A stretch of DNA of 35,722 nt from Thermoleophilia bacterium (GTDB lineage: Bacteria > Actinomycetota > Thermoleophilia > Gaiellales > SKUG01): NCBI GenBank assembly GCA_025964405.1, contig JAOPYW010000005.1, forward strand, positions 1 to 35,722, given 5' to 3'. The translations under genes were made by a program, and so were the position numbers. Below are positions 1,907 to 32,317 of this stretch, piece by piece. The stretch's first letter is position 1; each line of letters opens with the position of its first letter. The notes beneath the pieces were generated by a model. That model was given only the letters and a program-made list of their open reading frames with translations, made no database searches and was not told where the DNA came from.

Positions 1907-1970
1907 CGTCTCGCCCGTCATGCGCGGAGTCAGGGACGGCCTCGCGCAGCTACGGGAAGGGAATCCCTAC

Positions 1971-5026: not shown

Positions 5027-5121
5027 CAACTCGACGGCCAGTCGGTAGGATTTGCAGACCGTCTGGAGGCGGTCCATTGCCATGGAGGGCGATGGTCACA
5101 CACCAAGGAGGGTGGGAAACC

Positions 5122-10709: not shown

Positions 10710-10772
10710 CGCTACCGGGCTGCACGTCGAGGAAGGGGCACGCTTCCAGTTCCCCCAGCCCTGGAGTTCCAC

Positions 10773-11159: not shown

Positions 11160-11188
11160 ACCGCGGCGGCGCGGCCGACTGACATCGG

Positions 11189-12013
11189 TTAGCGGCGGGC
11201 GCGCACGCGACGTCGTACGGCATTGACCGCGAGCCCCGCGACGAGCGCGAGCACACCTGCCCGCGCGGCGGTGCTGCGGTGGAGCGGTGCGCGCACGCGG
11301 GTCGTGAAGCGCAGGATGCCCCAGCCCTCCGCCTCGGCCAGCGCACGCAGCTGCTTGTCGGGGTTCACGGCGTAGGCGCGCCCCGTGGCCTGCAGGAATT
11401 CCGCGTCGGTGATCGAGTCCGAATAGGCGACGCTCGCCGCGAGGTCGATCCCCTCCGCTGCCGCGAACGCCCGGAGGCGCGCCGCCTTGTCGGGCCCGTG
11501 ACACGGCGCCGACACCCGCCCCGTGAAGAGTCCGTCGACGACCTCGAGCTGCGTCGCGATGGCGCCGTCGAGCCCGAGCATGGCCGCGAGCGGTGCGATC
11601 ACCTCTTCCATCGTCGCGCTCACGGCGTAGACCGGCATGCCCTGCTGGTGGTGCTGCGCGATGCGCTCGATCGCCTCGTCGAACACCATCGGCCTGATCC
11701 GTCGCTCCAGCTCGGTCTCGACGACGTGCAGGAACGTGTCGCGCTTCCAGCCCGCCATCACGGCTGACACCACGTCGTTGGCCCGGTCGATCTGCGCGTG
11801 GTTCTGGCCCCGGGCCGCGAACACCGCCTGCCCGAGCATCGTGCGCACCACCTGACGCGCGGTCAGCAGCCCGTGCTGGCGCAGGGGCCGGGCCAGGTAG
11901 AGGCCACTCGCACCCGCGAGCAGCGTGCGGTCGACGTCGAAGAACGCGGCGCCGCGTGACGACGGGGTGACCGGTGGGCGCTGCTCGAGCAGCGTGGAAC
12001 TCGATTCGCTCAT
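11189..12013 (-). CDS. HAD-IB family hydrolase (SerB-like phosphatase fold)
   Basis: Motif I AAFFDVDRTLL. Motif-IV-like YSDSITDAEFL. C-terminal hydrophobic tail AGVLALVAGLAVNAV. Confidence 0.75.
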   Translation of the reverse strand: MSESSSTLLEQRPPVTPSSRGAAFFDVDRTLLAGASGLYLARPLRQHGLLTARQVVRTMLGQAVFAARGQNHAQIDRANDVVSAVMAGWKRDTFLHVVETELERRIRPMVFDEAIERIAQHHQQGMPVYAVSATMEEVIAPLAAMLGLDGAIATQLEVVDGLFTGRVSAPCHGPDKAARLRAFAAAEGIDLAASVAYSDSITDAEFLQATGRAYAVNPDKQLRALAEAEGWGILRFTTRVRAPLHRSTAARAGVLALVAGLAVNAVRRRVRARR

Positions 12014-12081
12014 GGCTCCACAGTACCCACTGCCCGGCGCGCGGGCGGGGCAGGTCTGCGCGTAGCTGCGCGGGCTGCGAC

Positions 12082-13212
12082 TTACAGCAGCGAGAGCGGC
12101 TTCTTGATGCGATCCATCGGGGCCGGCGGCTTGGGCTCCACCTTCGGGCGCCGCGCCTCGACGGCCTCGGCCAGCAGCTCGAACTGCACGGCGGCGTAGG
12201 GCGCCGGATCCTCGAACCGGCGCGCGACGATCGGCTCGCCTAGGTCGCCGCCCTCGCGCACGGCCTGCTCGAGCGGCACCGTCGCCAGCAGCGGCACCTG
12301 CAGCTCGTCGGCGAGCAGCTGCCCGCCGCCACGGCCGAACACCTGCGGTCCACCCTCGGGGTCTGACATCGTCTCGACGACGCCGAGCACGATCTGGTCG
12401 AGCTGCATCGCGCTGAGCGCCGAGCGCTTGGCAACCTTCTGCGCGGCCGACTGCGGGGTGGTTACGACGAGTGCTTCGGCGCGCGGCAGGAGCTGCCCGA
12501 GCGAGATGGCGACGTCTCCGGTGCCCGGCGGCATGTCGATCACGAGGTAGTCGAGGTCGCCCCAGTGCACGTCGCCGAGGAACTGCTCGAGCGCGCGGTG
12601 CAGCATCGGGCCGCGCCAGATGACGGCGGCGTCGGCATCGAGGAAGAAGCCGATCGACATCACGCGCACGTCGTGCGCGACGGGCGGCACGATCATCGAG
12701 TCGACGGTCACCGGCTTCTGGTGGATGCCGAGCATGGTCGGGATCGAGTAGCCGTAGACGTCGGCATCGAGCACGCCGACCTCATGGCCGCGGGCCTGCA
12801 GCGCGAGCGCGAGGTTCGCGGTGACCGTCGACTTGCCGACGCCGCCCTTGCCGCTGGTGACGGCGATCACGCGGCAGGAGTCGGGAATCGAGACGCCGGG
12901 GGAGCGGTGCTGGCGATCACCGTCGAGCTGGCCGCGGAGCGCGGTGCGCTGCTCCTGGCTCATGACGCCGAACTCGATGCGCGTCGAGGTGACGCCTTCG
13001 AGCCGGCCGACCGTGTCGTTGACCTGGTCCTTGAACGATTGCTTGAGCGGGCACCCGGGCGTGGTCAGCAGCAGGTGAACGAGCACTTGGCCGTGGTCGT
13101 CGATCGACACGTTCTCGATCATGCCGAGCGTCACGACGTCCTGTCGGAGCTCGGGATCCTGCACGAAGCGGAGTTCGGCGAGGAGCTGGTCGTGCGTGGG
13201 GCGCGAAGTCAT
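12082..13212 (-). CDS. mrp: Mrp/ApbC/NBP35-family Fe-S cluster carrier ATPase with N-terminal DUF59-like domain
   Basis: Deviant Walker A VIAVTSGKGGVGKSTVTANLA. N-terminal DPELRQDVVTLGMI...TTPGCPL (MIP18/DUF59). I moved the start to ATG 13212 (MTSRPTHDQ...). Confidence 0.9.
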   Translation of the reverse strand: MTSRPTHDQLLAELRFVQDPELRQDVVTLGMIENVSIDDHGQVLVHLLLTTPGCPLKQSFKDQVNDTVGRLEGVTSTRIEFGVMSQEQRTALRGQLDGDRQHRSPGVSIPDSCRVIAVTSGKGGVGKSTVTANLALALQARGHEVGVLDADVYGYSIPTMLGIHQKPVTVDSMIVPPVAHDVRVMSIGFFLDADAAVIWRGPMLHRALEQFLGDVHWGDLDYLVIDMPPGTGDVAISLGQLLPRAEALVVTTPQSAAQKVAKRSALSAMQLDQIVLGVVETMSDPEGGPQVFGRGGGQLLADELQVPLLATVPLEQAVREGGDLGEPIVARRFEDPAPYAAVQFELLAEAVEARRPKVEPKPPAPMDRIKKPLSLL

Positions 13213-13685: not shown

Positions 13686-14102
13686 TCAAGTGCTGACGTG
13701 GCCGTCTCGCAGCGCCGAAGGGCGCACTTGCCACCGCGAATGCGCCGTCTCCTCAGCCGCGATTCGGAACGTGTCCGGACCGCGCCCTATGCGGAGGTCG
13801 AACTTCGTGGCCTCGGTGAAATCCCGCCAGAAATAGGCGCCGACGATTCCCCCGCTCGCGCAGGCGGGAACAAGCGCCAGAAGCAGTTGAAACGCGTTCC
13901 ATTCGACCGGCACCACGATCACGTCGTTCCCATGACCCGGCCGGAGGTGGAACAGGAGCGTGAACAAGAACCACGCGACAACGGCAGCCCCGATCGATGG
14001 CCCGAGCACCGCGCTGCGGCCACGCTCGCAACGGTACGACGCGGTCGGTGACGGACGGGTCTGACCGACAAGCGCTGCGACCTGCTCCGTGAGATCGCTC
14101 AC
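13686..14102 (-). CDS. Hypothetical two-TM membrane protein, translationally coupled to DUF1015
   Basis: The GTG start at 14102 overlaps the upstream TGA (GTGA overlap). Two hydrophobic helices (AVLGPSIGAAVVAWFLFTLLFHL, AFQLLLALVPACASGGIVGAYFW). The region looks less GC-rich by eye than its neighbours. No homolog recognised. Confidence 0.4.
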   Translation of the reverse strand: MSDLTEQVAALVGQTRPSPTASYRCERGRSAVLGPSIGAAVVAWFLFTLLFHLRPGHGNDVIVVPVEWNAFQLLLALVPACASGGIVGAYFWRDFTEATKFDLRIGRGPDTFRIAAEETAHSRWQVRPSALRDGHVST

Positions 14103-15415
14103 AGCCCGATCAAGGAGGGATCCACCGCACGGTAGGCCACGCCGGTCGGAACCTTCGGGTAGTAGTAGGTCGACTTCTGGGGCAGCAGTTCGCCCGCCTC
14201 GGCCACCGCGTGGATGAGCATCGGGTCGATCTCGCGCATCACGAAGACGAGCGTGTCGGGGCCAGCGGCAGCCACTGCCTCATCGAGCACGCGCGTGTAG
14301 GAGACGCCGCCGCCCGCGGCGAGGTGGTCGGTCAGCACGGCGCCGCCGTCGAGCAGCAGTGCGTGCAGCGCGAGCACGTCGAGCTGGCGGGCGGCGTCGG
14401 CGCTGTCGGGAGCGGCGAGCTGCATGTCGAGCTCGTCGGGCACGGAGAGCAGGCGGATCGGTCGACCGCCGCCGAGCACCACGAAACCGGGCGCGTCGAG
14501 CAGCGCGAGCGCTGCGGTCGCCTCCTCGACCGTCGCGAACTCCTGGTCGGCGAAGGCGCCGGCCTCCACGATGAACCGGTCGAGCCGCGCCGGGTCGACG
14601 CCGCGCACGATGCGGTGGGTCGGGAAGACCACGATGCCGGGGTCGGCGCTGTTGACGACCATGGCCAGCACGCCGTTCTCCCACGAGCTCGACGTGTGGG
14701 GCGGTCCGACGTAGTCGGTGCCGCCGGCCTCGACGAGGTGCGGACGTCGCGCGTTCGCCTCCTGCTGGTACTCGAGCGCCGCGGTGTAGCGGTGATGCCC
14801 GTCGGCGATGAGCAGCGCGTGCGGTTCGACCGCGGCGGTGAACGCATCGGTCAATGCGATGTCGGTGACGAACCAGACCGCGCTCTGGGTGCCGTCGGCG
14901 TCGGTGCCGGTGAAGTCGGGCTCCTCGTCGGTCACCGAGGCGAACAGGTCGACGAGCGAGCGCTCGGGATCGTGATAGGCCAGGAAGACCGGACTGACGT
15001 TGGCGCCCGTGCCCCGCATGAGCTCGGTGCGCGCCTTGCGCGGGCCGTCGAACGTGCGCTCGTGCGGCAGCACGACACCCGAGCCGAACGGTGCCAGTCC
15101 GACTTCGCAGCAGACCGCGGTGCGCTCCCGACGTACCCCATCAGGGCCCACGAAGCGCTGGCGAACGACCGCGACACCGACCTCGCCCGCCGCGAGCGCG
15201 CCGCTCTCCAGCCAGTCGCGCAGCAGGCGGCCTGAGGTCGAGCTGAATCCGTCGGCCGGCACTTCGACGTTCATCGCCTGGTGGACGCTGCCGAGCGCGA
15301 TCGCATCGCGCTGCTCCGTCGTCACCACGTCGTAGGGCGGCGCGAGGAGTCGCCCCGGGTCACCGACCACGTCGGCGTCGTACCTGATGATGGGAAATGC
15401 GCGAGCTTCGGCCAT
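14099..15415 (-). CDS. DUF1015 domain-containing protein
   Basis: Only the 3' 438 codons of the 1002-aa track ORF are credible. Start ATG 15415 (MAEARAFPIIRYD...). The LLAPPYDVV motif and a ~440-aa length are typical of DUF1015. Confidence 0.75.
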   Translation of the reverse strand: MAEARAFPIIRYDADVVGDPGRLLAPPYDVVTTEQRDAIALGSVHQAMNVEVPADGFSSTSGRLLRDWLESGALAAGEVGVAVVRQRFVGPDGVRRERTAVCCEVGLAPFGSGVVLPHERTFDGPRKARTELMRGTGANVSPVFLAYHDPERSLVDLFASVTDEEPDFTGTDADGTQSAVWFVTDIALTDAFTAAVEPHALLIADGHHRYTAALEYQQEANARRPHLVEAGGTDYVGPPHTSSSWENGVLAMVVNSADPGIVVFPTHRIVRGVDPARLDRFIVEAGAFADQEFATVEEATAALALLDAPGFVVLGGGRPIRLLSVPDELDMQLAAPDSADAARQLDVLALHALLLDGGAVLTDHLAAGGGVSYTRVLDEAVAAAGPDTLVFVMREIDPMLIHAVAEAGELLPQKSTYYYPKVPTGVAYRAVDPSLIGL

Positions 15416-15505
15416 GTCCGCAAGCCTATCGCGTGGCCGGACCCGGGCGGGCGCGACTGCCGACCTGCCGCCCCTGCCCCGCCTGCACCGATACAGTGCA
15501 GCCTG

Positions 15506-16369
15506 ATGAGCGGTGACACACGCATAGCTGACGTCGCGCCCGGCCAGACGGTCGAGGGTGTCTACGCGGTCGTGCGCAAGCAGCGCCGCCTCGACAAGAA
15601 CGGCGACGCCTACCTCGTCGTCGAGCTGAGCGACCCGACCGGGCGCATCGAGGGCCGCATCTGGAAGAACGCCGACTGGTTCGACCGCAACATCCGCGAG
15701 GGCGATCGCGTTCGGGCCGTGGGGCGGGGCTCGAAGTTCCGCGACCAGGTGCAGCTCGAGATCCGCCGCCTCGACAAGCTCGAGCTCGACGGCAGTGATG
15801 CACCGACGGAGGCGTTCATCCCGGCCACGTCGCGTGACGCCGACGACCTCGCGGGGGAGCTCGACTTCCTCATCAGCGAGATCACGCACCCGGAGCAGCG
15901 CGCGCTGTGCGAGGCCGTGTGGCAGGGGCCGCTGCGCGACGACCTGCTCCACTCGCCGGCGACGGCGCTCGACCACCACGCCCATCTCGGCGGCCTCGTC
16001 GAGCACACGATCGCGGTGACCACGATCTGTCAGGCGGCGGCCGACCGGCATCCCAGCCTCGACCGTGACCTGCTGACCACGGCGGCGCTGCTGCACGACA
16101 TCGGTCGCGCGAAGGAGCTGCGCGCCGAGCTCGTGATCGAGGTCGACCGGGCGGGCGGGCTCGTCGGACACGTGCTGCTCACGCACGAGCTGCTGCTCGG
16201 CGCCGCGCTCGACGCGCGCCTCGACGTCAACGCCACGCCGTGGTGGCCCCAGTTCGTGCATGCCGTCAGCTCCCACCACGGACCCACCGAGCGCTGCCGC
16301 ACCCGCGAGGCCGTGGTGCTGGTCTCGGCGAACGCGCTCGACGCGCGCCTCGCCCAACGCGACCGCTGA
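15506..16369 (+). CDS. OB-fold + HD-domain nuclease (YhaM-like 3'-5' exoribonuclease family)
   Basis: Start ATG 15506 (MSGDTRIADV...). OB-fold region VEGVYAVVRKQRRLDKNGDAYLVVELSDPTGRIEGRIW. HD motifs HHAHLGGLVEHT and LLHDIGR. Confidence 0.65.
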   Translation: MSGDTRIADVAPGQTVEGVYAVVRKQRRLDKNGDAYLVVELSDPTGRIEGRIWKNADWFDRNIREGDRVRAVGRGSKFRDQVQLEIRRLDKLELDGSDAPTEAFIPATSRDADDLAGELDFLISEITHPEQRALCEAVWQGPLRDDLLHSPATALDHHAHLGGLVEHTIAVTTICQAAADRHPSLDRDLLTTAALLHDIGRAKELRAELVIEVDRAGGLVGHVLLTHELLLGAALDARLDVNATPWWPQFVHAVSSHHGPTERCRTREAVVLVSANALDARLAQRDR

Positions 16370-16447
16370 GGGCCGCGCGGCGGCCACCAAGGCCACCTGT
16401 TCGCCGCGGCGATTGCCGCCCCCTCGTTCGAGCGTGAGACTTGCGGC

Positions 16448-17095
16448 ATGATGATCCGCCGACTCCTCCCACAGCGTCACCGCATCCTCTTCGTGGTCGC
16501 GTTCGTACTGCTTCGCCTGGCGATCTACTCGATCTTCCTGTTCAAGTTCTTCGTGCTCATGACGCTGCCCCAGTCGATCCTGGCCTACGTCGCGAGCCTC
16601 GCGATCATCGCGGGCATCTGGAAGCTGGCCGGCTGGTACGTGCCCAAGCACGCCGGCGGCTCCCAGCAGGCCGGACCGATCGTGCATCCCCTCGTCGGCG
16701 CACCCGGCCAACTCGCCGGTGGAGCCGTGGCGACCGCACCGGTTGCCGCAGCCGCAACCGCCCCCGCAGCAGCCCCCGCAGCCGCCCCGCCACTGACGCC
16801 GGCATCGACCGCACCGAGCGCAGCGCCGGTCGCGCCCACCGCGCCCGTTCCCGCCGCAGCTGACGTCGCGGTGAACATCTTCGCGGTGCCCGCGATGCGC
16901 GTGACGGCCCCCGTGCTCGCCGCCGAGCCCACGGTCGTCGCGCCGATCGCGCCGGCCGCTCCCCATGACTCGGCCGCAGCCCTCGTCGCCGCGATGGGCT
17001 CGACCTGGCCGACCACCGCCGGCCCGAGCTTCGAGCGCCCCCTTCCGGCGTGGACGCCGCCGGCCGCGCCGCAGTTCACCGGCGCCCGCGCCTAG
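16448..17095 (+). CDS. Hypothetical membrane protein with Ala/Pro-rich low-complexity C-terminal half
   Basis: The N-terminus has three hydrophobic helices (ILFVVAFVLLRLAIYSIFLFKFFVL, ILAYVASLAIIAGIWKLAGW). The opposite-strand ORFs lack any such structure, so I prefer the plus strand. Confidence 0.45.
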   Translation: MMIRRLLPQRHRILFVVAFVLLRLAIYSIFLFKFFVLMTLPQSILAYVASLAIIAGIWKLAGWYVPKHAGGSQQAGPIVHPLVGAPGQLAGGAVATAPVAAAATAPAAAPAAAPPLTPASTAPSAAPVAPTAPVPAAADVAVNIFAVPAMRVTAPVLAAEPTVVAPIAPAAPHDSAAALVAAMGSTWPTTAGPSFERPLPAWTPPAAPQFTGARA

Positions 17096-17154
17096 CGCGC
17101 ACACCAAGGGCCCGCATCAGCGAGCCCTCGGCCGGTCTTCATCTATGGCGGTCG

Positions 17155-17439
17155 CTACACGAACAACGGGTTCTTCGGATTCGCCGCTGCGTGCGCATGA
17201 CCGAACAGGTTCATGCCGCCTGCTACACCAGCACCGATGCTGTGCAGCGCCAGGATCACGCCGCCGGCCCCGGCGCGCGTAGCGGCGATGCTGCTGAGGC
17301 CGCCGACCATGTTGAGCACGTCCATGGTGCCCTCGCCGATACGGGTGCCCTTGTCGGTCGCCTTCGTGTCGTTACCCCAGATGGGCTGCAGCACGAAGTT
17401 GCGCGTCCACTGATGACCTACACCGGTGATGAATGACAT
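17155..17439 (-). CDS. Small hypothetical protein (94 aa) with Gly/Ala-rich hydrophobic C-terminal half
   Basis: ATG 17439 follows GAGGAG with 5-nt spacing. Sequence MSFITGVGHQWTRNFVLQPIWGNDTK...GGLSSIAATRAGAGGVILALHSIGAGVAGGMNLFGHAH. No family recognised. Confidence 0.45.
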   Translation of the reverse strand: MSFITGVGHQWTRNFVLQPIWGNDTKATDKGTRIGEGTMDVLNMVGGLSSIAATRAGAGGVILALHSIGAGVAGGMNLFGHAHAAANPKNPLFV

Positions 17440-22453: not shown

Positions 22454-23632
22454 GTGAACGACCTCTTCCACGCAGCGGCCGACGAGCACCGCGCGCGCAT
22501 CGCGCCACTGGCCGACCGCATGCGCCCGCGATCCTTCAGCGAGATCGTCGGGCAGCAGCGGCTCGTCGGCGACGACGGTCGCCTCGCGAAGCAGCTCGCC
22601 GGCGGCCACGTGCCGAACATGGTCATCGTGGGCCCGCCCGGCACCGGCAAGACCACGCTCGCCCGCCTGGTCGCCGAAGCGGCAGGCATGGCGCTCGAGG
22701 AGCTGTCGGCGGTCGCGGCCGGCCTCGCCGACGTGCGGCGCGTGGTCGAGGAGGCGCGCACGCGCCTCGGATCCACCGGGCGCCAGACGGTGCTCTTCCT
22801 CGACGAGATCCACCGCTTCAACCGGTCGCAGCAGGATGCGCTCCTGCCGACCGTCGAAGCCGGCGTGATCCGGCTCGTCGGCGCCACGACCGAGAACCCC
22901 TACGTCTCGATCAACAAGGCGCTGCTCTCACGCCTCGTCACGTACGAGCTGGAGCCGCTCAAGCGTGACGCCATCACGGCCCTGCTGCAGCGCGCAGCCG
23001 ACGACACCGAACGGGGGCTCGCCAGCGGCGGCGCCGTGACGCTCGAGCAGTCGGCGATCGACGCCATCCTCGAGCGTGCGGGCGGCGACGCCCGTGGCGC
23101 GCTCACCCTCCTCGAGGCCGCCAGCCTGCTCGCCACCGACCGCGTGATCGACGCGGCCGCGGTCGAGGCGGCCAGCGACCGTCGACGCATCGACTACGAC
23201 CGCGCCGGCGACCAGCACTACGACCACGCCTCCGCCTACATCAAGTCGATGCGCGCCTCCGACCCCGAGACCGCGCTGCACATGCTGGCGCAGATGCTCG
23301 TGAGCGGCGAGGATCCGATGTTCATCGCGCGCCGCCTGTTCATCTTCGCGGCCGAGGACGTCGGTGCCGCCAAGCCCAACGCGCTCCTGCTCGCCGGCGC
23401 CGCGCTCGAGAGCGTGCGCTCGCTCGGCATGCCGGAGTGCAAGTTCGCCCTCGCGCAGGTCACGCGCTACTGCGCCGAGGCGCCCAAGTCGCGCCAGGCC
23501 GTCGACGACATCTCCCGGCACATGGACGCCGTCACGTCGGGCGGCACTGCTGACATCCCGCTCGCGCTCACCAACCGCCCCGGCGCCCAGCAGGCTCGCC
23601 GCGACGCCGCGCGACTGGACCGGCACTCGTGA
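22454..23632 (+). CDS. rarA: Replication-associated recombination protein A (RarA/MgsA AAA+ ATPase)
   Basis: LADRMRPRSFSEIVGQQ, Walker A GPPGTGKTTLA, Walker B VLFLDEIHRFN and the C-terminal MgsA motif HYDHASAYIKSMRASDPETALHMLAQML. The start (GTG 22454) is uncertain. Confidence 0.9.
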   Translation: MNDLFHAAADEHRARIAPLADRMRPRSFSEIVGQQRLVGDDGRLAKQLAGGHVPNMVIVGPPGTGKTTLARLVAEAAGMALEELSAVAAGLADVRRVVEEARTRLGSTGRQTVLFLDEIHRFNRSQQDALLPTVEAGVIRLVGATTENPYVSINKALLSRLVTYELEPLKRDAITALLQRAADDTERGLASGGAVTLEQSAIDAILERAGGDARGALTLLEAASLLATDRVIDAAAVEAASDRRRIDYDRAGDQHYDHASAYIKSMRASDPETALHMLAQMLVSGEDPMFIARRLFIFAAEDVGAAKPNALLLAGAALESVRSLGMPECKFALAQVTRYCAEAPKSRQAVDDISRHMDAVTSGGTADIPLALTNRPGAQQARRDAARLDRHS

Positions 23633-24147
23633 CCCGCGCCCGTCGCCTGCTCCGGTTCGGCGTCCTCGCCGTGCTCGTCGTCACGCTCGGCGTGTTCGCG
23701 GGCGGCTGCCGCAAGGTCATCTCCGACGTGCTGCTCGAGAGCCTCGTCTCCGACTACTACTACGACATCTCGACGGTGCGCGTCGACGTGCGCTGCCCGG
23801 AGGGCAAGACGCTGCGCACCGACAACGACTTCTTCTGCCACATCTACCGTGACGGAAAGCGTACCGGCCAGGTGCTCGTGCTCCCCCAGGACGACTACGG
23901 CCGCATGATCGTCAGCATCGAGACCCCGCTCGACATGGAGATCGTGCTTCCCTTCCTCAAGGACTGGCTCCGCCGCGACCAGCCCCAGCTCGTGGGCAAG
24001 CGCATCACGTGTCCCGAGGACATCATCCGCGAACCCGACCGCAACTTCGCCTGCCGAGTCGGCTCCCGCCGCGTCGAGGTGCGGCAGGTCGACGGCGTGT
24101 CGACGTTCGTCTTCAACCTGCTCGCGAAGGGCCAGAAGGTCCAATGA
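23629..24147 (+). CDS. Hypothetical lipoprotein (two Cys-pair repeats, DUF4333-like)
   Basis: The ATG overlaps the rarA stop. Signal peptide plus lipobox VVTLGVFAGGC. Two repeated C...C modules (VRCPEG...FFCHI and ITCPED...FACRV). Confidence 0.5.
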   Translation: MTRARRLLRFGVLAVLVVTLGVFAGGCRKVISDVLLESLVSDYYYDISTVRVDVRCPEGKTLRTDNDFFCHIYRDGKRTGQVLVLPQDDYGRMIVSIETPLDMEIVLPFLKDWLRRDQPQLVGKRITCPEDIIREPDRNFACRVGSRRVEVRQVDGVSTFVFNLLAKGQKVQ

Positions 24148-24947
24148 CCGATGCCGCCATCACCACCGTCGGCCTCACGCGCAGCTACGGCGCGACGAAG
24201 GCCGTCGACTCGCTCGACCTGCAGGTCGGTCCGGGGGAGCTGTTCGCGCTGCTCGGACCCAACGGTGCAGGCAAGAGCACGACGATCTCGATGCTCACCA
24301 CGCTCCTGCGCCCCGACGCCGGCTCGGCGACCGTCGCCGGCTTCGACGTGGTGCGCGAGCGCCGCGACGTGCGCCGCTCGATCGGCATCGTGTTCCAGGA
24401 TCCGACGCTCGACCTGTACCTCACCGTGACGGAGAACCTGCGCTTCCACGCGACCCTCTACGACATGGGGCGCGCCGACAGCACTGCGCGCATCCGGGAG
24501 CTGCTCGAACTGGTGGAGCTCGGCGAACGCCGCGACGACCTCGTGCGCACGCTGTCGGGCGGCCTGCGACGACGCCTCGAGCTGGCGCGCGCGCTCATGC
24601 ACCGTCCGAAGGTGCTCTTCCTCGACGAGCCGACGCTGGGGCTCGATCCACGCGCGCGTGCCTCGGTCGCCGAGCAGATCGACGGGCTGCGCGCCTCGCA
24701 GGGCACGACCGTCGTGCTCACGACGCACTACCTCGCCGAGGCCGAGCGGTGCGACCGCGTGGCGATCATCGACCGCGGCGTCATCGTCGCGCACGACACG
24801 CCCGACGCGCTCCGTGCGCAGGTGAGCCCCACGGCGACGCTCGACGACGTCTTCCTCCACGTCACGGGTCGGCCGATCGCCGACGAGGAACCATCGCTCG
24901 CCGACATGGGCCGAGACACCGACCGCCAGCGATCGGGCCGTGGATGA
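24144..24947 (+). CDS. ABC transporter ATP-binding protein (ABC-2/DrrA-like exporter type)
   Basis: ATGA overlap with the upstream gene. Walker A GPNGAGKST, signature LSGGLRRRLELA, Walker B VLFLDEPT. Confidence 0.9.
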   Translation: MTDAAITTVGLTRSYGATKAVDSLDLQVGPGELFALLGPNGAGKSTTISMLTTLLRPDAGSATVAGFDVVRERRDVRRSIGIVFQDPTLDLYLTVTENLRFHATLYDMGRADSTARIRELLELVELGERRDDLVRTLSGGLRRRLELARALMHRPKVLFLDEPTLGLDPRARASVAEQIDGLRASQGTTVVLTTHYLAEAERCDRVAIIDRGVIVAHDTPDALRAQVSPTATLDDVFLHVTGRPIADEEPSLADMGRDTDRQRSGRG

Positions 24948-25768
24948 GGGCCGAGCTCCGCACCATCGCCATGGTCGCGCGCCGCGAGCTGCTGACGTTC
25001 CGGCGCAACCCGGCGCGCATGCTCGTCACGCTCGTGCAGCCCGTGGCCTTCCTGCTCATCCTCGGCGCAGGGCTCGACGCTGCCGCGCAGGCCGTCGGCG
25101 GGCTCGACTACCGTTCCTACATCTTCCCCGGCGTGGTCGGCATGGCGGTCATCATGCCGGCGTTCTTCGCGGCGGGCAGCGTGGTCTACGACCGCGAGTT
25201 CGGGTTCCTGCGGGAGATGCTCGCCGCGCCCGTGAGTCGCTGGTCGATCGTGCTCGGCAAGTGCGTGGGCGGAGCGACGATCGCGGCGCTCCACGGCGCC
25301 GTCGTCGTGGCGTGCGCGGGGCTCGTCGAAGTGCCCTACACCGTCGGCATGGTGCTCGGCCTGCTCGGCCTCGCCTGGCTCCTCGGCTTCATGCTCGTGG
25401 CCTTCGGGCTCGTCATCGCCGCCCGTGCGCGGCAGTTCCAGAACTACATGTCGACGGTGAACCTCATCGCGATGCCGATGCTGCTCGCATCGGGCGCGCT
25501 GTTCCCCCTCAGCGGCCTCCCTGACTGGCTCGGTGTGGTCACGCGACACGATCCGCTCGCCTACGTGGTCGATCCGATGCGGCGCATCGTCTTCCCGCTC
25601 CTCGACTTCAGCCAGCCAATCGCCCAGCAGATCTACCTGGTGCCCTCCGAAGCCCGCGTGACATGGGGCGACACCGTCGTTTCCGTGTGGCTGGAATTGG
25701 GACTGTTGGTGGGCATTACGGTGGTCTCACTGATTACCGCGGTGCGGCGGTTGGACCGTGACGACTAG
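24944..25768 (+). CDS. ABC-2 type transporter permease
   Basis: ATGA overlap with the ATPase gene. Six hydrophobic helices. N-terminal RRELLTFRRNPARML is typical of ABC-2 permeases. Confidence 0.8.
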   Translation: MRAELRTIAMVARRELLTFRRNPARMLVTLVQPVAFLLILGAGLDAAAQAVGGLDYRSYIFPGVVGMAVIMPAFFAAGSVVYDREFGFLREMLAAPVSRWSIVLGKCVGGATIAALHGAVVVACAGLVEVPYTVGMVLGLLGLAWLLGFMLVAFGLVIAARARQFQNYMSTVNLIAMPMLLASGALFPLSGLPDWLGVVTRHDPLAYVVDPMRRIVFPLLDFSQPIAQQIYLVPSEARVTWGDTVVSVWLELGLLVGITVVSLITAVRRLDRDD

Positions 25769-25844: not shown

Positions 25845-25919
25845 ATGACCTGGACCAAGCCGTCATTCACCAAGCTCGAGCTCGCGTGTGAGGTCACCCT
25901 CTACCGCCACGCTCGCTGA
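25845..25919 (+). CDS. pqqA: PqqA, precursor peptide of pyrroloquinoline quinone (24 aa; absent from the ORF track)
   Basis: ATG 25845 to TGA 25917-25919, with AAGGAGA at 25833-25839. Translation MTWTKPSFTKLELACEVTLYRHAR contains the invariant PqqA E-x-x-x-Y core (E16 VTL Y20) and the W-x-x-P N-terminal pattern. It sits directly upstream of pqqBCDE. Confidence 0.8.
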   Translation: MTWTKPSFTKLELACEVTLYRHAR

Positions 25920-25943
25920 GACCACGTCTCACCTGAGTTTCAG

Positions 25944-25975
25944 GGGCCGCTCCGATACCGGAGCGGCCCTTTTTT
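25944..25975 (+). terminator. Intrinsic terminator/attenuator between pqqA and pqqB
   Basis: gggccgctccg-atac-cggagcggccc forms an 11-bp perfect GC-rich stem followed by TTTTTT (25970-25975). It starts 25 nt after the pqqA stop and ends just before pqqB. Confidence 0.7.
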
Positions 25976-25981
25976 CATGCC

Positions 25982-26911
25982 GTGTGCGAGATACTTCCGG
26001 TCGTGAGCTCGCTTCAGGTACGCATCCTTGGTTCGGCCGCTGGCGGTGGGTCGCCCCAGTGGAACTGCAACTGCACCGTCTGCACGGCCGTGCGGCGCGG
26101 CGACGCGGGCACCCGGCCGCGCATGCAGTCGTCGCTCGCGATCCGATCCGGCGACGGGCCATGGCTGCTGGTGAACGCCTCCCCCGACGTGCACCGCCAG
26201 GTCGAACTCATGCCTGCGGAGCACCGCGAGGCCGGCGGCCGCTCGACGCCGTTCGCCGGCGTGCTGCTCACCGACGCGGAGATCGACCACGCATCGGGCC
26301 TGTTGCTGCTCCGGGAATCCACCGAACCGCTCCAGCTGTTCGCGACCGCGCAGGCGCACGGCGCGCTCACCGACGAGTGGCCACTCGTGACGATGCTCTC
26401 CGACTGGTGCGGGGTCGACTGGCGCGAACTGCGAGCCGGGTCGTCGACGCGCCTCGACGGCTTCGGCCTCACCGCCGACTGCTTCACCACGGGGGAGGAC
26501 GCGCCGCGCTACCAGCGCTCGCCCGGCGGGCCCGGCACGTCGATCGGCATCACCTTCCGCAGCGCCGGTGGGCAGACCCTCACCTACTGCCCGACGATCG
26601 AGGCCTGGAGCGACGAGCTCCGCACGCGGCTCGCGGCGAGTGACCTCGTGCTCGTCGACGGCACCTTCTGGGGCGCCACCGAACTGGCCGACGAAGGGCT
26701 CGGCACCCGCTCGGCGCGCGACATGGGACACGTACCGCTCGGCGGCGACGACGGCACGGCTGCCGAACTCGCCCGCCTCGACACCCGCGCGGTGGTCGTG
26801 CACGTCAACAACACCAACCGCATCCTGCTCGAGGGGTCGGCCGAGCGCGCCGCACTCGAGGCGCTCGACATCACCGTCGCCCACGACGGCCTGCTGCTGG
26901 AGATCACATGA
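25982..26911 (+). CDS. pqqB: PqqB, PQQ biosynthesis protein B (metallo-beta-lactamase fold)
   Basis: [30 protein letters not shown] and [13 protein letters not shown] match PqqB hallmark motifs. The start is uncertain (GTG 25982 or GTG 26003, neither with a strong RBS). Confidence 0.9.
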
Positions 26912-27657
26912 CGGTGCAGACCACCGCTCCCCTGACCTACTTCGACCTCGCCGGCGTCGATCCGTGGTCGCGCGAGGAGTTCACCGCGCAGCTGCGCGCC
27001 AACGGCCGGTCGTACCACGATCGCCACCCGTTCCACGTGCGGATGAACGCCGGGGAGCTGACGCGCGAGGAGCTCGCGCGGTGGGTCGCCAACCGCTTCG
27101 CGTACCAGCAGGTGATTCCGCGCAAGGACGCCGCGATCCTCGCGAACTGCGACGAACGACAGGTGCGGCGCGACTGGATCAGTCGCATCCTCGACCACGA
27201 CGGCGACGCCGAACGCGAGGGGGGCATGCGCTCCTGGGTGCAGCTCGGCGAGGCGATCGGGGTGACGGGCGATGAGCTGTGGAGCGGCGTGCACGTGCTG
27301 CCGGCCGTGCAGTTCGCATGCGACGCCTACCTCAATTTCTGCAGGACGCAGCCGTGGATCATCGGGGTCGCGTCGTCGCTCACCGAGCTCTTCGGACCGG
27401 ACGCCATCCGGGTGCGCATCGCCGCGATGGAAGCCAGCTACCCGTGGATCGACCCCGCCGGGTTCGACTACTTCCGCGAGCGACTGACGCTCGCGCCGCG
27501 CGACGCCGACTACGCCCTCGAGCTCGTGCTCGAGCGCTGCACGACGCGCGCGCTGCAACAGGCGGCCGTCGATGCGCTCGCGTTCAAGATCGACATGTTG
27601 TGGGCCCAGCTCGACGCGATCGCCCTGGGTGACACCCGACCGAAGGAAGCACGATGA
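26908..27657 (+). CDS. pqqC: PqqC, pyrroloquinoline-quinone synthase
   Basis: ATGA overlap with pqq[48 protein letters not shown] is typical of PqqC. 249 aa. Confidence 0.9.
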
Positions 27658-27926
27658 GTGACGTCCACGTTCCCCGACTGGCCTCCGGCGTGCGGCTGCA
27701 CCGCGACGAGGTGCGGGCCCGCGACGTGCTGCTGTTCCCCGAGGGGGCGCTCGTGCTCAACGATACGGCGACCCAGGTGCTCGCGTTCTGCGACGGTGTG
27801 CGAACCTTTGACGAGGTGGTCGCGGCGGTGTCGGAGCTCTACGGCGGAGCCGACGTGCGCGACGACGTGGCGGAGCTCCTCGCCGGTATTCGCGACCAGG
27901 GATTGATGGACCGAGATGACGAGTAA
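27654..27926 (+). CDS. pqqD: PqqD, peptide chaperone (RRE domain)
   Basis: ATGA overlap with pqqC. 90 aa. Pattern [41 protein letters not shown]. Confidence 0.85.
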
Positions 27927-29064
27927 TGCACCGCAGGTCGCAGGCCAGGGGGTCGGTATCCCGTACCCCCTCCTGCTGGTCGCCGAGCTCTCCTACGTGT
28001 GCCCGCTCCACTGCCCGTACTGCTCCAACCCGACGGGCATCCTCGGCACGAAGCGCTCCACCGAACTCAAGACCGACGACTGGACCCGCGTGTTCGGCGA
28101 GGCGGGCAAGCTCGGCGTGCTGCAGCTCGCGCTGACCGGCGGCGAACCGCTCCTGCGCAAGGACCTCGAGGAGCTCTGCACCGCCGGGCGCGACGCGGGC
28201 ATGTACTCCACACTCGTGACGAGCGCGCTGCCGAACCTCACCGAGCGCCTTCCCGGGCTGCAGGCGGCGGGCCTCGACCACGTGCAGATCTCGATCCAGC
28301 ACTCCAACCGTGAGGAGTCGGACCGCATCGGAGGCGCCGTCTCCTACGACAAGAAGCTGGAAGCGGCGCGACGGGTCGTCGAACTCGGCATGCCGCTGAC
28401 GATCAACGTCGTGCTGCACCGCGACAACCTCGACGACGTCGGTGAGCTGATCGACCTAGCGGCCAGTCTCGGCGCGCGCCGCCTGGAGCTCGCGAACACG
28501 CAGTACCACGGCTGGGCGACGGTCAACCGCGCAGCGCTCCTGCCCACGCTCGAGCAGGTCACGCGGGGCGAGCAGGTCGTCAACGAGAAGCGCGCCCAGT
28601 ATGGCTCGAGCCTGGACATCCTCTGGGTGCTGCCCGACATCTTCGAGGACCTGCCCAAGCCCTGCATGGGTGGCTGGGCGAGTGACGCGATCATCCTCGA
28701 TCCGACCGGCCGCGCGCTCCCGTGTCAGTCGGCGGCGACGATTCCGGACCTCGAGCACCTCTCGGTGACCGAACACTCGCTGTTCGACATCTGGTTCGAC
28801 TCGGAGACGTTCAACCGGTTCCGCGGCACCGACTGGATGCAGGACCCCTGCCAGACGTGTCCGCTCCAGCGCCAGCACATCGACTTCGGTGGTTGTCGGT
28901 GTCAGGCCCTGGCACTCACGGGTGACATCACGGCCACCGATCCGGTGTGTCACCTCTCGCCCCATCACGGCGCGCTCGTCGCGAAGCGTGAGGAGCTGCT
29001 CGCCGTGCGCGACGAGGACCGCCCGGCCTACGTCTACCGCACCACGAGCCCCGCGCGCGGCTAG
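27916..29064 (+). CDS. pqqE: PqqE, radical SAM/SPASM enzyme forming the Glu-Tyr crosslink in PqqA
   Basis: 11-nt overlap with pqqD. LLLVAELSYVCPLHCPYCSNP (CxxxCxxC). C-terminal SPASM cysteines (PCMGGW, LPCQSA, CQTCP, GGCRCQA). Confidence 0.9.
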   Translation: MTSNAPQVAGQGVGIPYPLLLVAELSYVCPLHCPYCSNPTGILGTKRSTELKTDDWTRVFGEAGKLGVLQLALTGGEPLLRKDLEELCTAGRDAGMYSTLVTSALPNLTERLPGLQAAGLDHVQISIQHSNREESDRIGGAVSYDKKLEAARRVVELGMPLTINVVLHRDNLDDVGELIDLAASLGARRLELANTQYHGWATVNRAALLPTLEQVTRGEQVVNEKRAQYGSSLDILWVLPDIFEDLPKPCMGGWASDAIILDPTGRALPCQSAATIPDLEHLSVTEHSLFDIWFDSETFNRFRGTDWMQDPCQTCPLQRQHIDFGGCRCQALALTGDITATDPVCHLSPHHGALVAKREELLAVRDEDRPAYVYRTTSPARG

Positions 29065-29721: not shown

Positions 29722-31761
29722 TCAACCCTGGTTGGCGTCACTGTTCGCCGCATCGCCCGTCTCGGAGGAGGTGGCAGCGTCGTCCTGCCCTTCCTTGCCG
29801 GTCTGGTCAGCGTTGGCGTCAGCGGTCACTTCACCGGCGTGTGCGCCAGCTTCGTCGGTACCGTCGGTACCGGAGAGCTGGTCGAGCTTACCGTCGAGCG
29901 AGAGCACCCACAGGTTGTCGCCGTGCGGCGACGCTGCGAGTGAGTTACCACCGGCCACGATGGCGAGCTTCTGCTTGCCAGCGTCCTCGAACACCGTGAC
30001 GGTGCTGTTGGCACCGGCGCCGAGCTGGAAGCTCCAGAGCTTCTTGCCGGCGTCGGCGGAGTAGGCCTCGAGGTGACCGTCGCTGTTACCGACGAACACC
30101 AGGTTGCCTGCAGTGGTGACCGAACCCGAGTAGCAGCTCGTCGGGAAGTCGACGGCCCACTCGATCTCACCCGTGTCAGCGTTGATGGCCGTGAGGCTAC
30201 CCGGTGAGCTGAACGGCAGTGCGGCGAGGATGGAGCCGATGCGAACATCGCCCTCGACGCGCTCGGCGACACCTGACGGGTACACGCCCTCGACGCCATC
30301 GGTCGAGCAGACGTAGATCAGGTGCGTCTTGTGGTTGTACGACGACGGCTGCCAGTTCGTACCACCCGTTGCGCCGTTGGCGATGACCGCCACGGTGCCC
30401 GGGCCGGACGGCTGCCAGACGGAGTTCGCGTCACCGGTGCCACGGACAGCCTTGAGGTTCTTGCCCTCAGGCGTGCCCTGCACGAGCTTCACGACCGAGT
30501 TGAACTCGGCGTCGCTGATGTCGTGGTCCGAGAACGGCGCGTACTGCGGTACGGGCTGCGTCGGCGACGTCTTCTGCTGTGCGTTCTGTGCGACCGGCGT
30601 CTCCTCAATGGGCCACACGGGCTCACCGGTTCGACGATCGAGTGCGTAGAGCCAACCGGTCTTCGCGGCCTCGGCTACGACCGGAACGGTCTTACCGTCG
30701 ATCTTCGCGTCGTACAGGAAGGTCGGGCTCGGCTGGTCGTAGTCCCAGATGTCGTGGTGCGTCGTCTGGTAGTGCCACTTGTACTCACCGGTCTTGGCGT
30801 CGAGTGCCACGAACGAGGCGGCGAACAGGTTGTCGCCCTCGCGAGCGGAACCGTCGACGTCGGGGTTCGCGTTACCCGTGGTGAAGTACAGCATGCCCAG
30901 CTTCGGATCAACCGACGGGGTCTGCCAGATCGGAGCGCCACCCGTGAGGGCACTGTCGCCCGCCCAGGTCTTGGCGAACTCGGGATCACCCTCGGGACCG
31001 GCGGTCGTGAAGAACTTCCAGTCCTCCTTGCCCGTCTTCGCGTCGAGTGCGACCAGCTTGCCACGCACGCCGTACTCGCCACCGGTGATGCCGGTGTAGA
31101 TGCGGCCGTCGTAGTAGAGGGGAGCTGCGGTGATGCCGCCGTTCTCCTTCTTCCAGTTCACCACTTCGGTGTCCCAGACCTGCTTGCCGGTGTCCTGGTC
31201 GAGCGCGACCATGTGACCGTCGAGCTTGCCGATGTAGACGTTGCCATCACCGATGGCGACGCCACGGCTCAGCCAACCGCAGCAGACGGTGGAGATGTTC
31301 TCGTCGAGGTTGCCCTCGTACTTCCACTTCTGCTTGCCGGTCTTCACGTCGAAGGCGAAGACGTCGTCCTCACCCGTCGGTACGTAGAGCACGCCGTTGT
31401 AGACGAGCGGCTGCTCCTCGTGCGAGTACTTGGCCTCGGTGCCCGACTGGAGGTCGGCCATCCAGTCGCCCTTGACGTCGGCGACGTTGGTGTCGTTGAT
31501 CTGGGTCAGCGGGGAGTAGCGATCATTCCTGAGCGTACCGCCGTTGGTGATCCAATTTTCCTTGGGCAGCGTGTTGAGCTGCTTGGAGGTGAAGGCCGGG
31601 AAGGTCGCCGGCGTACCGCCGTCGCTACCCGAGTTGTCGCTGCTGTCGCTACCGCACGCGGCCACGCCGAGTGCGCTCACGACGACGAGCGCAACCGCGG
31701 TGGCGCCACGCCACCAGCGGGTCCGCGGACTGGCCGCGGCGTTTCGCTTGAAGATCTGCAT
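29722..31761 (-). CDS. Type I PQQ-dependent alcohol/methanol-family dehydrogenase (quinoprotein, 8-bladed propeller), lipobox-anchored, with Ln-type D-Y-D motif
   Basis: Vicinal CC (TVCCGW, 31279-31284). GGEYGVRG. Repeated xALDAKTGKxxW blade motifs. TTGNANPD. THHDIWDYDQ with D343/D345 (30736-30744). Lipobox ALGVAACGS. Preferred start is ATG 31761; the track uses GTG 31770. Confidence 0.9.
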   Translation of the reverse strand: MQIFKRNAAASPRTRWWRGATAVALVVVSALGVAACGSDSSDNSGSDGGTPATFPAFTSKQLNTLPKENWITNGGTLRNDRYSPLTQINDTNVADVKGDWMADLQSGTEAKYSHEEQPLVYNGVLYVPTGEDDVFAFDVKTGKQKWKYEGNLDENISTVCCGWLSRGVAIGDGNVYIGKLDGHMVALDQDTGKQVWDTEVVNWKKENGGITAAPLYYDGRIYTGITGGEYGVRGKLVALDAKTGKEDWKFFTTAGPEGDPEFAKTWAGDSALTGGAPIWQTPSVDPKLGMLYFTTGNANPDVDGSAREGDNLFAASFVALDAKTGEYKWHYQTTHHDIWDYDQPSPTFLYDAKIDGKTVPVVAEAAKTGWLYALDRRTGEPVWPIEETPVAQNAQQKTSPTQPVPQYAPFSDHDISDAEFNSVVKLVQGTPEGKNLKAVRGTGDANSVWQPSGPGTVAVIANGATGGTNWQPSSYNHKTHLIYVCSTDGVEGVYPSGVAERVEGDVRIGSILAALPFSSPGSLTAINADTGEIEWAVDFPTSCYSGSVTTAGNLVFVGNSDGHLEAYSADAGKKLWSFQLGAGANSTVTVFEDAGKQKLAIVAGGNSLAASPHGDNLWVLSLDGKLDQLSGTDGTDEAGAHAGEVTADANADQTGKEGQDDAATSSETGDAANSDANQG

Positions 31762-31912
31762 TTTAAGCACTGCCCCTTGTTGACATGCCAGTCGCAGACG
31801 CGACCAGCCCCATAGACGCCGGCGAGACTACCATCCCGCCGCCTTGTATCCACCCTGCGGATTTCGGACGCTCGACGGTCGAACCGTCGCGCCTCCGCCG
31901 ACCACGCGGTTC

Positions 31913-32317
31913 CTAGCTCTTCAGGCCGCCGGCGACGAAGTCGGCGACCGCCTTGATCTCCTCATCGCTCAGCTGGCCCTTGAATGCCGGCATGCCGCCG
32001 CCACCGTTGGACACCTGCTCGATGTTGTGTGCCGCATCGCTCTGCGACGAGATGTCGGGACCGCCGTTGCCGCCGGTGCCCTTCTGGCCGTGACAGATGG
32101 TGCAGTTGTTGAGGAAGACCGACTTGCCGCTCACGGCTTCGGTGTTCGTCGCGGCCGTCTCCGTGTTCGTGGAGGTGCTGGCCGTCGGCGCCGTGCCGGT
32201 CTTGCCCGAATCGCCATCCTTGCTGTCGCCGCCACAGGCGGAGACGAGGAGTGCGACGGCCAGGACGAGCAGGAGCGCTGCTCCGCGGCGGTAGCGATCT
32301 GTCGTGCGTGCGTACAT
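31913..32317 (-). CDS. Class I c-type cytochrome, lipobox-anchored (candidate electron acceptor of the PQQ dehydrogenase)
   Basis: Single CxxCH (NNCTICHG) with distal Met in GGGGMPAF. Signal peptide plus lipobox LLVSACGG and a Thr/Ser-rich linker. It lies 142 nt upstream of the dehydrogenase on the same strand. Confidence 0.8.
   Translation of the reverse strand: MYARTTDRYRRGAALLLVLAVALLVSACGGDSKDGDSGKTGTAPTASTSTNTETAATNTEAVSGKSVFLNNCTICHGQKGTGGNGGPDISSQSDAAHNIEQVSNGGGGMPAFKGQLSDEEIKAVADFVAGGLKS

Follow-up and report, generated by a model that had tools for sequence, protein, structure and literature searches.

A predicted lanthanide-type PQQ alcohol dehydrogenase with a lipid anchor and a separate cytochrome c in a Thermoleophilia actinobacterium

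Introduction

Can an alcohol dehydrogenase of the lanthanide type work in a bacterium without an outer membrane? The question is raised by a gene on contig JAOPYW010000005.1 of a Thermoleophilia bacterium (assembly GCA_025964405.1), of which we analyzed a stretch of 35,722 nucleotides, hereafter called the window. This gene encodes a dehydrogenase dependent on pyrroloquinoline quinone (PQQ) with a second aspartate two residues after the catalytic one (the D-x-D motif). All biochemically confirmed lanthanide enzymes are from diderm bacteria. The absence of XoxF from Gram-positive metagenome-assembled genomes (MAGs) was called 'not surprising' in a 2024 metagenomic study, XoxF being periplasmic (PMC10875860). 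Models of lanthanide acquisition by TonB receptors, periplasmic carriers and Lut/Ped ATP-binding cassette (ABC) transporters likewise presuppose a periplasm, and the envelope considered here lies outside them.

We propose, with a probability of roughly 0.62, that the gene product and a neighboring cytochrome c form a two-part alcohol-oxidizing system of the lanthanide type at the outward-facing side of the cytoplasmic membrane in a soil-type actinobacterium of the class Thermoleophilia. That the protein is an active, surface-tethered PQQ dehydrogenase with this cytochrome c as its partner appears very probable.

Results and Discussion

The dehydrogenase and its metal site

The open reading frame (ORF) of the dehydrogenase is intact and encodes 682 amino acids (aa) if translation begins at a GTG, or 679 aa if it begins at an alternative ATG (position 31761); these are the two lengths given in an earlier interpretation made from the letters of the DNA, here called the sequence-only reading. 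Pfam profile PF01011 (PQQ) matched residues 73-600 over profile positions 1-593 of 595 (E=1.2e-98; 331.8 bits, cut-off 26.7), and a phmmer search against the PDB matched PQQ alcohol dehydrogenases at E=1e-77. All motifs named in the sequence-only reading were located at the positions it had assigned to them (Table 1), namely TVCCGW (aa 161-166), GGEYGVRG (aa 230-237), TTGNANPD (aa 297-304) and the active-site segment THHDIWDYDQPS (THHDIW-D343-Y-D345-QPS, aa 337-348). The repeated propeller blades are represented by seven motifs of the type A-x-D-x-x-T/A-G, with ALDAKTG occurring twice (aa 241 and 322) besides the five variants ALDQDTG, ALDRRTG, AFDVKTG, AINADTG and AYSADAG.

An AlphaFold2 model built with 53 relatives had a mean pLDDT (predicted local distance difference test) score of 82.5 and a predicted template modeling (pTM) score of 0.84. 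The propeller was modeled with confidence, and disorder was limited to the N-terminal signal and linker, a loop at aa 507-509 and the last 40 residues. The top 30 Foldseek matches of this model were all PQQ alcohol, methanol or sorbose dehydrogenases, with the type II quinohemoprotein alcohol dehydrogenases (ADHs) 1KV9, 1YIQ and 1KB0 and PedH (6ZCV/6ZCW) in the lead at E=1e-46 to 1e-48. By profile and predicted fold the gene product is an 8-bladed PQQ propeller dehydrogenase.

For the metal site, reference sequences were reconstructed from HMMER alignments of PDB chains, and their N-terminal 340-370 residues were aligned by MAFFT with the window protein and three relatives, with a XoxF5 encoded on a plasmid and with a homologue from Nonomuraea that is described below. 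As an internal check, the residue numbers of XoxF, PedH and MxaF obtained from this alignment agreed with what we take to be the numbering of the original structure papers. The four metal ligands and the Cys-Cys ring of the window enzyme aligned with those of lanthanide XoxF and of PedH, and the Ca enzymes deviated at the D345 column only, where they had Ala (MxaF 4TQO with W-D-Y-A, 1G72 with W-D-F-A), Thr (ADH IIB and IIG) or Ser (ExaA 1FLG with W-D-F-S). The motifs that the sequence-only reading had given for MxaF, for ExaA (Ser) and for the lanthanide enzymes (Asp) matched these PDB sequences. Among the aligned enzymes with a solved or assayed metal, lanthanide use always coincided with Asp at this column, and Ca use with Ala, Ser or Thr. 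Because the alignment puts D345 of the window enzyme on XoxF D301 and PedH D325, as the sequence-only reading had predicted, a position outside the lanthanide-ligand column is ruled out. D343, D345, E232, N300 and C163-C164 were invariant in 53 aligned relatives. Published structures and mutagenesis have tied the extra Asp to lanthanide coordination (summarized in PMC11996626; bioRxiv 10.64898/2026.07.10.737718), and judging from the residues at the site we consider a lanthanide the probable physiological metal.

Relationship to other PQQ dehydrogenases

The window enzyme was 32-42% identical to characterized enzymes and scored 412.4 bits against the NCBIfam model TIGR03075 (PQQ-dependent dehydrogenase, methanol/ethanol family), under the cut-off of 480.05. 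Bit scores against PDB sequences were about equal for type II quinohemoproteins and PedH (262-265) and lower for XoxF and MxaF (164-228). A rough neighbor-joining tree of 335 columns, calculated without bootstrap, separated the window clade from the XoxF, MxaF, PedH and type II ADH clades. The score under the cut-off and the tree position both contradict the sequence-only reading in its assignment of the enzyme to the methanol family. By these comparisons it belongs neither to XoxF nor to ExaF/PedH, and its relatives are predicted quinohemoproteins.

Among the nearest 120 database homologues (52-90% identity) W-D-[YF]-D was present in all, the Cys pair in 119 and a C-terminal CxxCH cytochrome c domain in 116. 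Taxon names, where given, were Thermoleophilia, Gaiellales, Gaiellaceae, Conexibacter and Miltoncostaea, besides one MAG-derived Pseudomonadota label. The window enzyme belongs to a large uncharacterized family of the Thermoleophilia. One relative is from a cultured organism, Miltoncostaea marina (P0050, 54% identical, D-Y-D, genome CP064655.1).

When 1.84 billion cluster representatives were searched exhaustively, 2167 matched at E<1e-30, and Asp occupied both D-x-D columns in 122 of the best 150 of these 2167 representatives. D-x-D is thus the rule in the branch of the window enzyme and not the exception. In published work the motif was found in 61% of the PQQ dehydrogenases from the ocean and in 14 out of 17 families (PMC11996626), so that the rarity implied by the sequence-only reading was overstated for the branch as well as for the surveys. 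Eleven lanthanide ADH families have been predicted, of which type 2b alone is confirmed (2026 preprint, bioRxiv 10.64898/2026.07.10.737718).

The top matches by sequence as well as by Foldseek were type II quinohemoprotein ADHs (ADH IIB, 1KV9; ADH IIG, 1YIQ; quinohemoprotein ethanol dehydrogenase qhEDH, 1KB0). They share with the 116 fused relatives a layout in which a linker joins the PQQ domain to a C-terminal cytochrome c, and like the window enzyme they carry Lys instead of Arg at the equivalent of MxaF Arg331. The solved members differ from it as soluble periplasmic Ca enzymes with Thr at the D345 column. Their heme domain is fused, whereas the window encodes it upstream as a separate protein with a predicted lipid anchor.

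PedH/ExaF (type 2b; Pseudomonas putida and Methylorubrum extorquens; 6ZCV/6ZCW) shares the 8-bladed propeller, the Cys-Cys ring and the four metal ligands, the second Asp standing in W-D-F-D as compared to W-D-Y-D in the window. PedH was the joint best match by sequence and by fold (264.6 bits; target-normalized TM score 0.83), and a separate c-type cytochrome would serve as electron acceptor in the window as it does for PedH. With about 39% identity, however, PedH belongs to another clade, and it is soluble in the periplasm of a diderm while the window enzyme is a predicted lipoprotein of an actinobacterium. Lys370 of the window enzyme is replaced in PedH by Arg beside the RNG motif, and the window cytochrome, unlike that of PedH, is a predicted lipoprotein homologous to the fused quinohemoprotein domain. 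XoxF (4MAE, 6DAM, 6OC5) has the identical set of metal ligands and further shares PQQ and a partnering cytochrome c with the window enzyme. It is 32-37% identical to the window enzyme and forms a separate clade, and unlike XoxF loci the window has neither xoxJ/xoxG-type neighbors nor methylotrophy genes.

A more distant PQQ-propeller homologue (713 aa, 38% identity) with W-D-L-D was seen in Nonomuraea gerenzanensis (NZ_LT559118.1; locus L010, 5845-7986, plus strand). Its signal is of the twin-arginine type (RRNFLLGAA), the Cys-Cys ring is missing, the Glu/Asn ligands are replaced by Thr/Gly, and its C-terminal region resembled a cupredoxin-type domain when the sequence was inspected. It seems to represent a different, also unstudied type of actinobacterial PQQ enzyme.

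Membrane anchoring and host envelope

We classified proteins as lipoproteins if they had a signal peptide with the pattern [LVI][ASTVI][GAS]C. The dehydrogenase starts with a K/R-rich n-region and a hydrophobic stretch (residues 22-36), followed by the lipobox ALGVAAC with Cys39, which corroborates the lipobox described in the sequence-only reading. In the AlphaFold2 model residues 18-38 form a helix and residues 39-50 are disordered. Export by the twin-arginine pathway was considered and rejected, as the n-region R-T-R-W-W-R is without a twin arginine.

Tethering is nearly universal in the family. Of 118 relatives with complete N-termini, 20 had a lipobox and 95 a strongly hydrophobic segment of 19 residues (115 tethered in total). 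Behind these anchors came a linker of low complexity, about 44 residues long and enriched in A, T, P, E, D, S and G. The 20 lipobox relatives were all within the 24 closest of the 120 homologues. Lipid or helix tethering with long linkers was found in none of the periplasmic homologues aligned. A tether with a long linker is how monoderm bacteria retain 'periplasmic' enzymes, and its predicted presence here is independent support for a monoderm host. As a separate observation, in close relatives (P0002-P0018) the N-terminal linker contained acidic runs such as ACGGGDDDDDDSK or ACGDDGDGDGDGGG directly after the lipobox Cys.

By its relatives and shared synteny the host was assigned to the class Thermoleophilia of the Actinomycetota, which bears out the actinobacterial character noted in the sequence-only reading. 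The identical protein was not found in existing records, and a scan of GTDB species gave relatives of at most 68% identity; the assignment is therefore based on a 90%-identical protein of a Thermoleophilia MAG, encoded on a collinear contig, together with the synteny. The window has about 70% G+C, and its gene order is shared with Thermoleophilia MAG contigs well past the ADH gene (RarA is 76% identical, and DUF1385 is also common). A survey of flagellar genes in the phylum that included Thermoleophilia found L/P-ring genes in no actinobacterium and treated all but the mycolata as monoderm (PMC10746217).

A separate cytochrome c partner

Immediately upstream of the dehydrogenase gene, across a gap of 142 bp, is the gene of a cytochrome c with its own lipobox, a T/S/A-rich linker and a single CxxCH heme domain. 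This heme domain was 65% identical over 74 aa to the fused C-terminal heme domain of one of the relatives (P0011), and the best NCBIfam match of the protein was cytochrome c551 with a score of 52.6 (cut-off 118). The window enzyme and its four closest relatives (P0001, P0004-P0006) are without a heme domain and have an acidic disordered tail instead, so that the single-polypeptide layout of PQQ domain and cytochrome c known from type II quinohemoprotein ADHs is not found in the window protein. The tail has no CxxCH, has pLDDT values below 50 at residues 643-682 and is the counterpart of the linker joining the two domains in fused relatives. The order cytochrome c-ADH was also found on two related contigs, L011 (66% identity) and L012 (90%). 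By its domain content the window enzyme would be the lipoprotein PQQ half of a split quinohemoprotein-type ADH, and we propose the neighboring cytochrome c as its electron acceptor. A simple gene fission by a stop codon in the linker was rejected as the origin of the split form, because the fused domain is C-terminal, whereas the gene for the free cytochrome c is found upstream of the PQQ gene and not downstream of it.

The Bacillus-type c551 (the lipoprotein CccB) resembles the window cytochrome in lipobox, linker and single CxxCH domain, and anchoring of the c551 type is a monoderm way to hold a 'periplasmic' cytochrome at the membrane. The window cytochrome differs from c551 in scoring far under the cut-off and in being most closely related to the fused domains found in Thermoleophilia quinohemoproteins.

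Two further observations concern the C-terminal tail of the dehydrogenase. It is a very acidic region of low complexity rich in D, E, T, G and A, and His644, which lies in a conserved 'HAGE' motif, is invariant within the linker.

PQQ biosynthesis and a neighboring ABC transporter

A complete pqqABCDE operon (25845-29064) is convergent with the ADH gene. Directly upstream of pqqA and on the same strand are genes for a DUF4333-like protein, an ABC ATPase and an ABC-2 permease (23629-25768), and ATGA overlaps at 24144 and 24944 suggest translational coupling within this unit. Overall, the order cytochrome c-ADH-pqqEDCBA-ABC-2 recurs on three other contigs of Thermoleophilia/Gaiellales. The arrangement ADH/pqqEDCB/ABC-2/ATPase is kept in L011 (ABC unit at 10310-12455) and in L003, a Gaiellales MAG with a fused enzyme (15578-17196); L001 and L012 are shorter contigs with the pqq part alone visible. 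While the dehydrogenase itself was correctly recognized in the sequence-only reading, the cytochrome c partner, pqqABCDE and the ABC-2 transporter had been overlooked.

Export of PQQ is a necessity wherever it is synthesized in the cytoplasm but used outside the cell. The ABC pair resembles in its location the PedA1A2BC/Lut system, in which an ABC ATPase and an ABC-2 permease are likewise found beside a PQQ-ADH and pqq genes and which is required for growth of P. putida at nanomolar La (PMC6839425). An ABC-2 permease and an ATPase also adjoin pqqE beside xoxF5 on a Phyllobacterium plasmid; to this PedB/PedC-like pair the window ATPase was 37% and the permease 30% identical. The ATPase scored 248.8 against TIGR03864 (PedB-type, PQQ-dependent alcohol dehydrogenase system; cut-off 302.25) and the permease 95.4 against TIGR03861 (PedC; cut-off 241.35), and both scored higher on the generic DrrA/DrrB models. 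Neither a PedA1-type substrate-binding gene nor a PedA2-type YVTN propeller gene was found in the window, where a DUF4333-like gene takes their position, whereas the Phyllobacterium comparator has both. By these scores and gene content the pair does not qualify as a member of the PedA1A2BC/LutAEF system, and a PQQ exporter and a transporter of the lanthanide/alcohol system are equally good candidates for its role.

Searches of the window for lanmodulin, EF-hand and PepSY-type proteins gave no match. The claim of the sequence-only reading that known genes for lanthanide handling are missing nearby holds for lanmodulin; it was too strong as a general statement, because the ABC pair matches the PedB and PedC models under their cut-offs. 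An Ala-rich putative lipoprotein encoded between the ADH gene and pqqE had no Pfam or NCBIfam match, was absent from this place in L011 (66%) and L012 (90%) and gave no tblastn match in L001-L010. It was rejected as a candidate lanthanide chaperone for lack of a family match and because it is missing from the closest syntenic contigs.

The Phyllobacterium comparator mentioned above is plasmid pT1293c of Phyllobacterium sp. T1293 (L013), which carries, side by side, a complete xoxF5-xoxG-xoxJ-like cluster, pqqABCDE, a PedA1A2BC/Lut-like ABC system and genes for RuBisCO and the Calvin-Benson-Bassham cycle.

Proposed function and alternatives

The analysis shows the fold, the alignment of the ligands, both anchors, the neighboring partner genes and their conserved synteny. 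The use of a lanthanide rather than Ca, the type of substrate, the route of the electrons past the cytochrome c and the task of the ABC transporter are inferred. The dehydrogenase would be exported by the Sec pathway and lipid-anchored at Cys39, and PQQ made by the adjacent pqqABCDE genes would be loaded onto it outside the cell. A trivalent lanthanide would be bound via Glu232, Asn300, Asp343 and the extra Asp345, and since there would be no outer membrane, metallation might occur straight from the cell-wall zone without a TonB receptor. The enzyme would then oxidize an alcohol, most likely ethanol or another short primary alcohol, or methanol, and the electrons would pass to the lipid-anchored mono-heme cytochrome c encoded upstream and on to a terminal oxidase.

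Several points weigh against this proposal. Lanthanide dependence is a reasonable extrapolation from sequence for an uncharacterized family, and the window enzyme falls outside XoxF and type 2b, the sole experimentally confirmed lanthanide clades. Near the site it has an insertion, GNANPDVDG, after Asn300; Ser168 and Thr371 stand at positions of Asn in the references, and Lys370 at one of Arg (the Arg in most references, ADH IIB and IIG excepted). Nor does the D-x-D motif predict lanthanide use in every case: the membrane glucose dehydrogenase of E. coli carries it but works with Ca, Mg and further divalent metals (PMC11996626). No recognizable lanthanide-binding protein or sensor was found in the window, and the monoderm state of the source organism is deduced from taxonomy.

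Some of these points lead to the most serious alternative, in which the same tethered PQQ dehydrogenase depends on Ca2+ or is metal-promiscuous and the second Asp is ancestral or neutral and no lanthanide selector. The motif may indeed reflect ancestry and not selection for lanthanides, because it is the default across the whole uncharacterized radiation (122 of the best 150 representatives). The glucose dehydrogenase provides a precedent for D-x-D with divalent metals, experimental confirmation of lanthanide use comes from XoxF and type 2b only, and at the cell surface Ca is much more available than lanthanides. Yet Asp at the D345 column tracks the lanthanide in every aligned enzyme of solved or assayed metal, and D345 is invariant in relatives down to 52% identity, which points to purifying selection. 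We therefore regard a Ca2+-dependent or promiscuous enzyme as unlikely, though as the first alternative to be considered.

Even with a lanthanide in the site, the enzyme might not be catabolic for alcohols and might instead feed electrons to the respiratory chain as a sugar, polyol, aldehyde or polymer dehydrogenase (of the polyvinyl alcohol/polyethylene glycol type). PQQ dehydrogenases as a group are promiscuous, diverse alcohols and polyols are among the substrates of the closest solved relatives, the score against the methanol/ethanol model TIGR03075 was under the cut-off and the window has no methylotrophy or aldehyde-handling genes. On the other hand, the top matches by sequence and fold were all alcohol dehydrogenases, an aldehyde dehydrogenase is encoded about 9 kb off in the M. 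marina locus, and the relatives are annotated by JGI as quinohemoprotein ethanol dehydrogenase, a label that is automatic only. On balance a non-alcohol substrate seems improbable. That the host has a second membrane, or that the protein is released, so that the enzyme would be an ordinary periplasmic or soluble lanthanide enzyme, is very improbable: some Thermoleophilia stain Gram-negative and the window itself has no envelope markers, but Actinobacteria including Thermoleophilia are without flagellar L/P-ring genes and regarded as monoderm (PMC10746217), and the near-universal lipid or helix tether with a long linker in the relatives is the monoderm solution.

Novelty and implications

In the searchable literature we found no account of this Thermoleophilia family of PQQ dehydrogenases, no lanthanide-type PQQ enzyme described from Thermoleophilia and no characterized lanthanide enzyme from a Gram-positive organism, in agreement with the statement of the sequence-only reading that all characterized lanthanide enzymes are Gram-negative. 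Gram-positives and Actinobacteria go unmentioned in a 2024 review on rare-earth elements and in a 2026 review on methylotrophy. In a 2026 preprint 'Actinomycetes' are named as one of the phyla with the most abundant PQQ dehydrogenases (bioRxiv 10.64898/2026.07.10.737718), and the idea is therefore partly anticipated at the survey level. New is the predicted combination of a lanthanide-type site in an enzyme of the quinohemoprotein family, its lipid tethering in a monoderm and the split lipoprotein cytochrome partner.

Thousands of unstudied public relatives of the window enzyme share the metal site. We tentatively suggest, as an idea with somewhat less than an even chance, that Thermoleophilia (Gaiellales, Solirubrobacterales and Miltoncostaeales) run lanthanide-dependent, membrane-tethered quinohemoproteins at their surface which obtain their metal directly from their surroundings and use neither a TonB receptor nor lanmodulin nor other known parts of the lanthanome, with the ABC-2 transporter acting as PQQ exporter or lanthanide handler. 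If true, these would be the first Gram-positive lanthanoenzymes and the first lanthanide-type quinohemoproteins, in an environmentally abundant class, and rare-earth biochemistry would reach Actinomycetota frequently met in public metagenome collections. Loading of a lanthanide site would then be possible at an exposed cell surface, and the lipid-anchored pair of enzyme and cytochrome as well as the fused forms could be attractive for bio-electrochemical or rare-earth-sensing uses. Because M. marina is a cultured and sequenced relative with D-Y-D, the lanthanide question is directly testable.

Features and other genes of the window

The features discussed above are compiled in Table 1.

Table 1. 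Positions of the dehydrogenase, its predicted functional residues and the neighboring genes in the window.
Feature	Position	Strand	Evidence or equivalent residues
PQQ-dependent dehydrogenase subunit	29722..31770	-	ORF, PF01011, PDB and Foldseek matches, AlphaFold2 model
Predicted signal peptide and lipobox, aa 1-39 (V-A-A-C39), then S/D/G-rich linker	31654..31770	-	sequence, AlphaFold2
Cys163-Cys164, predicted disulfide ring over PQQ	31279..31284	-	SolV XoxF (4MAE) C104-C105, PedH (6ZCV) C131-C132, MxaF (4TQO) C103-C104
Glu232, metal ligand by alignment	31075..31077	-	SolV XoxF E172, PedH E199, MxaF E177
Asn300, metal ligand by alignment	30871..30873	-	SolV XoxF N256, PedH N281, MxaF N261
Asp343, predicted catalytic Asp	within 30736..30744	-	SolV XoxF D299, PedH D323, MxaF D303, XoxF1 AM1 (6OC5) D318
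Asp345, lanthanide-type Asp	within 30736..30744	-	SolV XoxF D301, PedH D325, XoxF1 AM1 (6OC5) D320; MxaF A305
Disordered acidic C-terminal tail, aa 630-682	29725..29883	-	AlphaFold2, comparison with fused homologues
Mono-heme cytochrome c lipoprotein, 134 aa	31913..32317	-	lipobox V-S-A-C28; C-T-I-C-H nt 32090-32104; PF13442 E=8e-15
Ala-rich putative lipoprotein, 164 aa	29093..29587	-	weak lipobox M-G-G-C; high G+C at third codon positions; between ADH and pqqE
pqqE	27916-29064	+	NCBIfam PqqE 456 > cut-off 381
pqqD	27633-27926	+	NCBIfam PqqD 66 > cut-off 46
pqqC	26908-27657	+	NCBIfam PqqC 295 > cut-off 240
pqqB	25982-26911	+	NCBIfam PqqB 324 > cut-off 245
pqqA precursor peptide MTWTKPSFTKLELACEVTLYRHAR	25845..25919	+	small ORF, E-x-x-x-Y (EVTLY), upstream AAGGAG ribosome-binding site
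ABC-2 permease	probable start 24944, end 25768	+	Pfam/NCBIfam
ABC ATPase	probable start 24144, end 24947	+	Pfam/NCBIfam
DUF4333-like protein	23629-24147	+	Pfam/NCBIfam

Elsewhere in the window, two subtilase (S8) genes on the plus strand (1920-3362 and 5020-6531) flank a sigma factor of the extracytoplasmic function (ECF) type (3478-4056). The unassigned ORF of 316 aa between the subtilase genes (4025-4975, plus strand) could encode the anti-sigma factor of this ECF-type sigma factor. An ORF of 1002 aa on the minus strand (14099-17107) is largely an artefact of high G+C, and its C-terminal DUF1015 part (about 14434-15400) alone looks real; opposite to it lies an OB-fold/HD-domain gene (15281-16369, plus strand).

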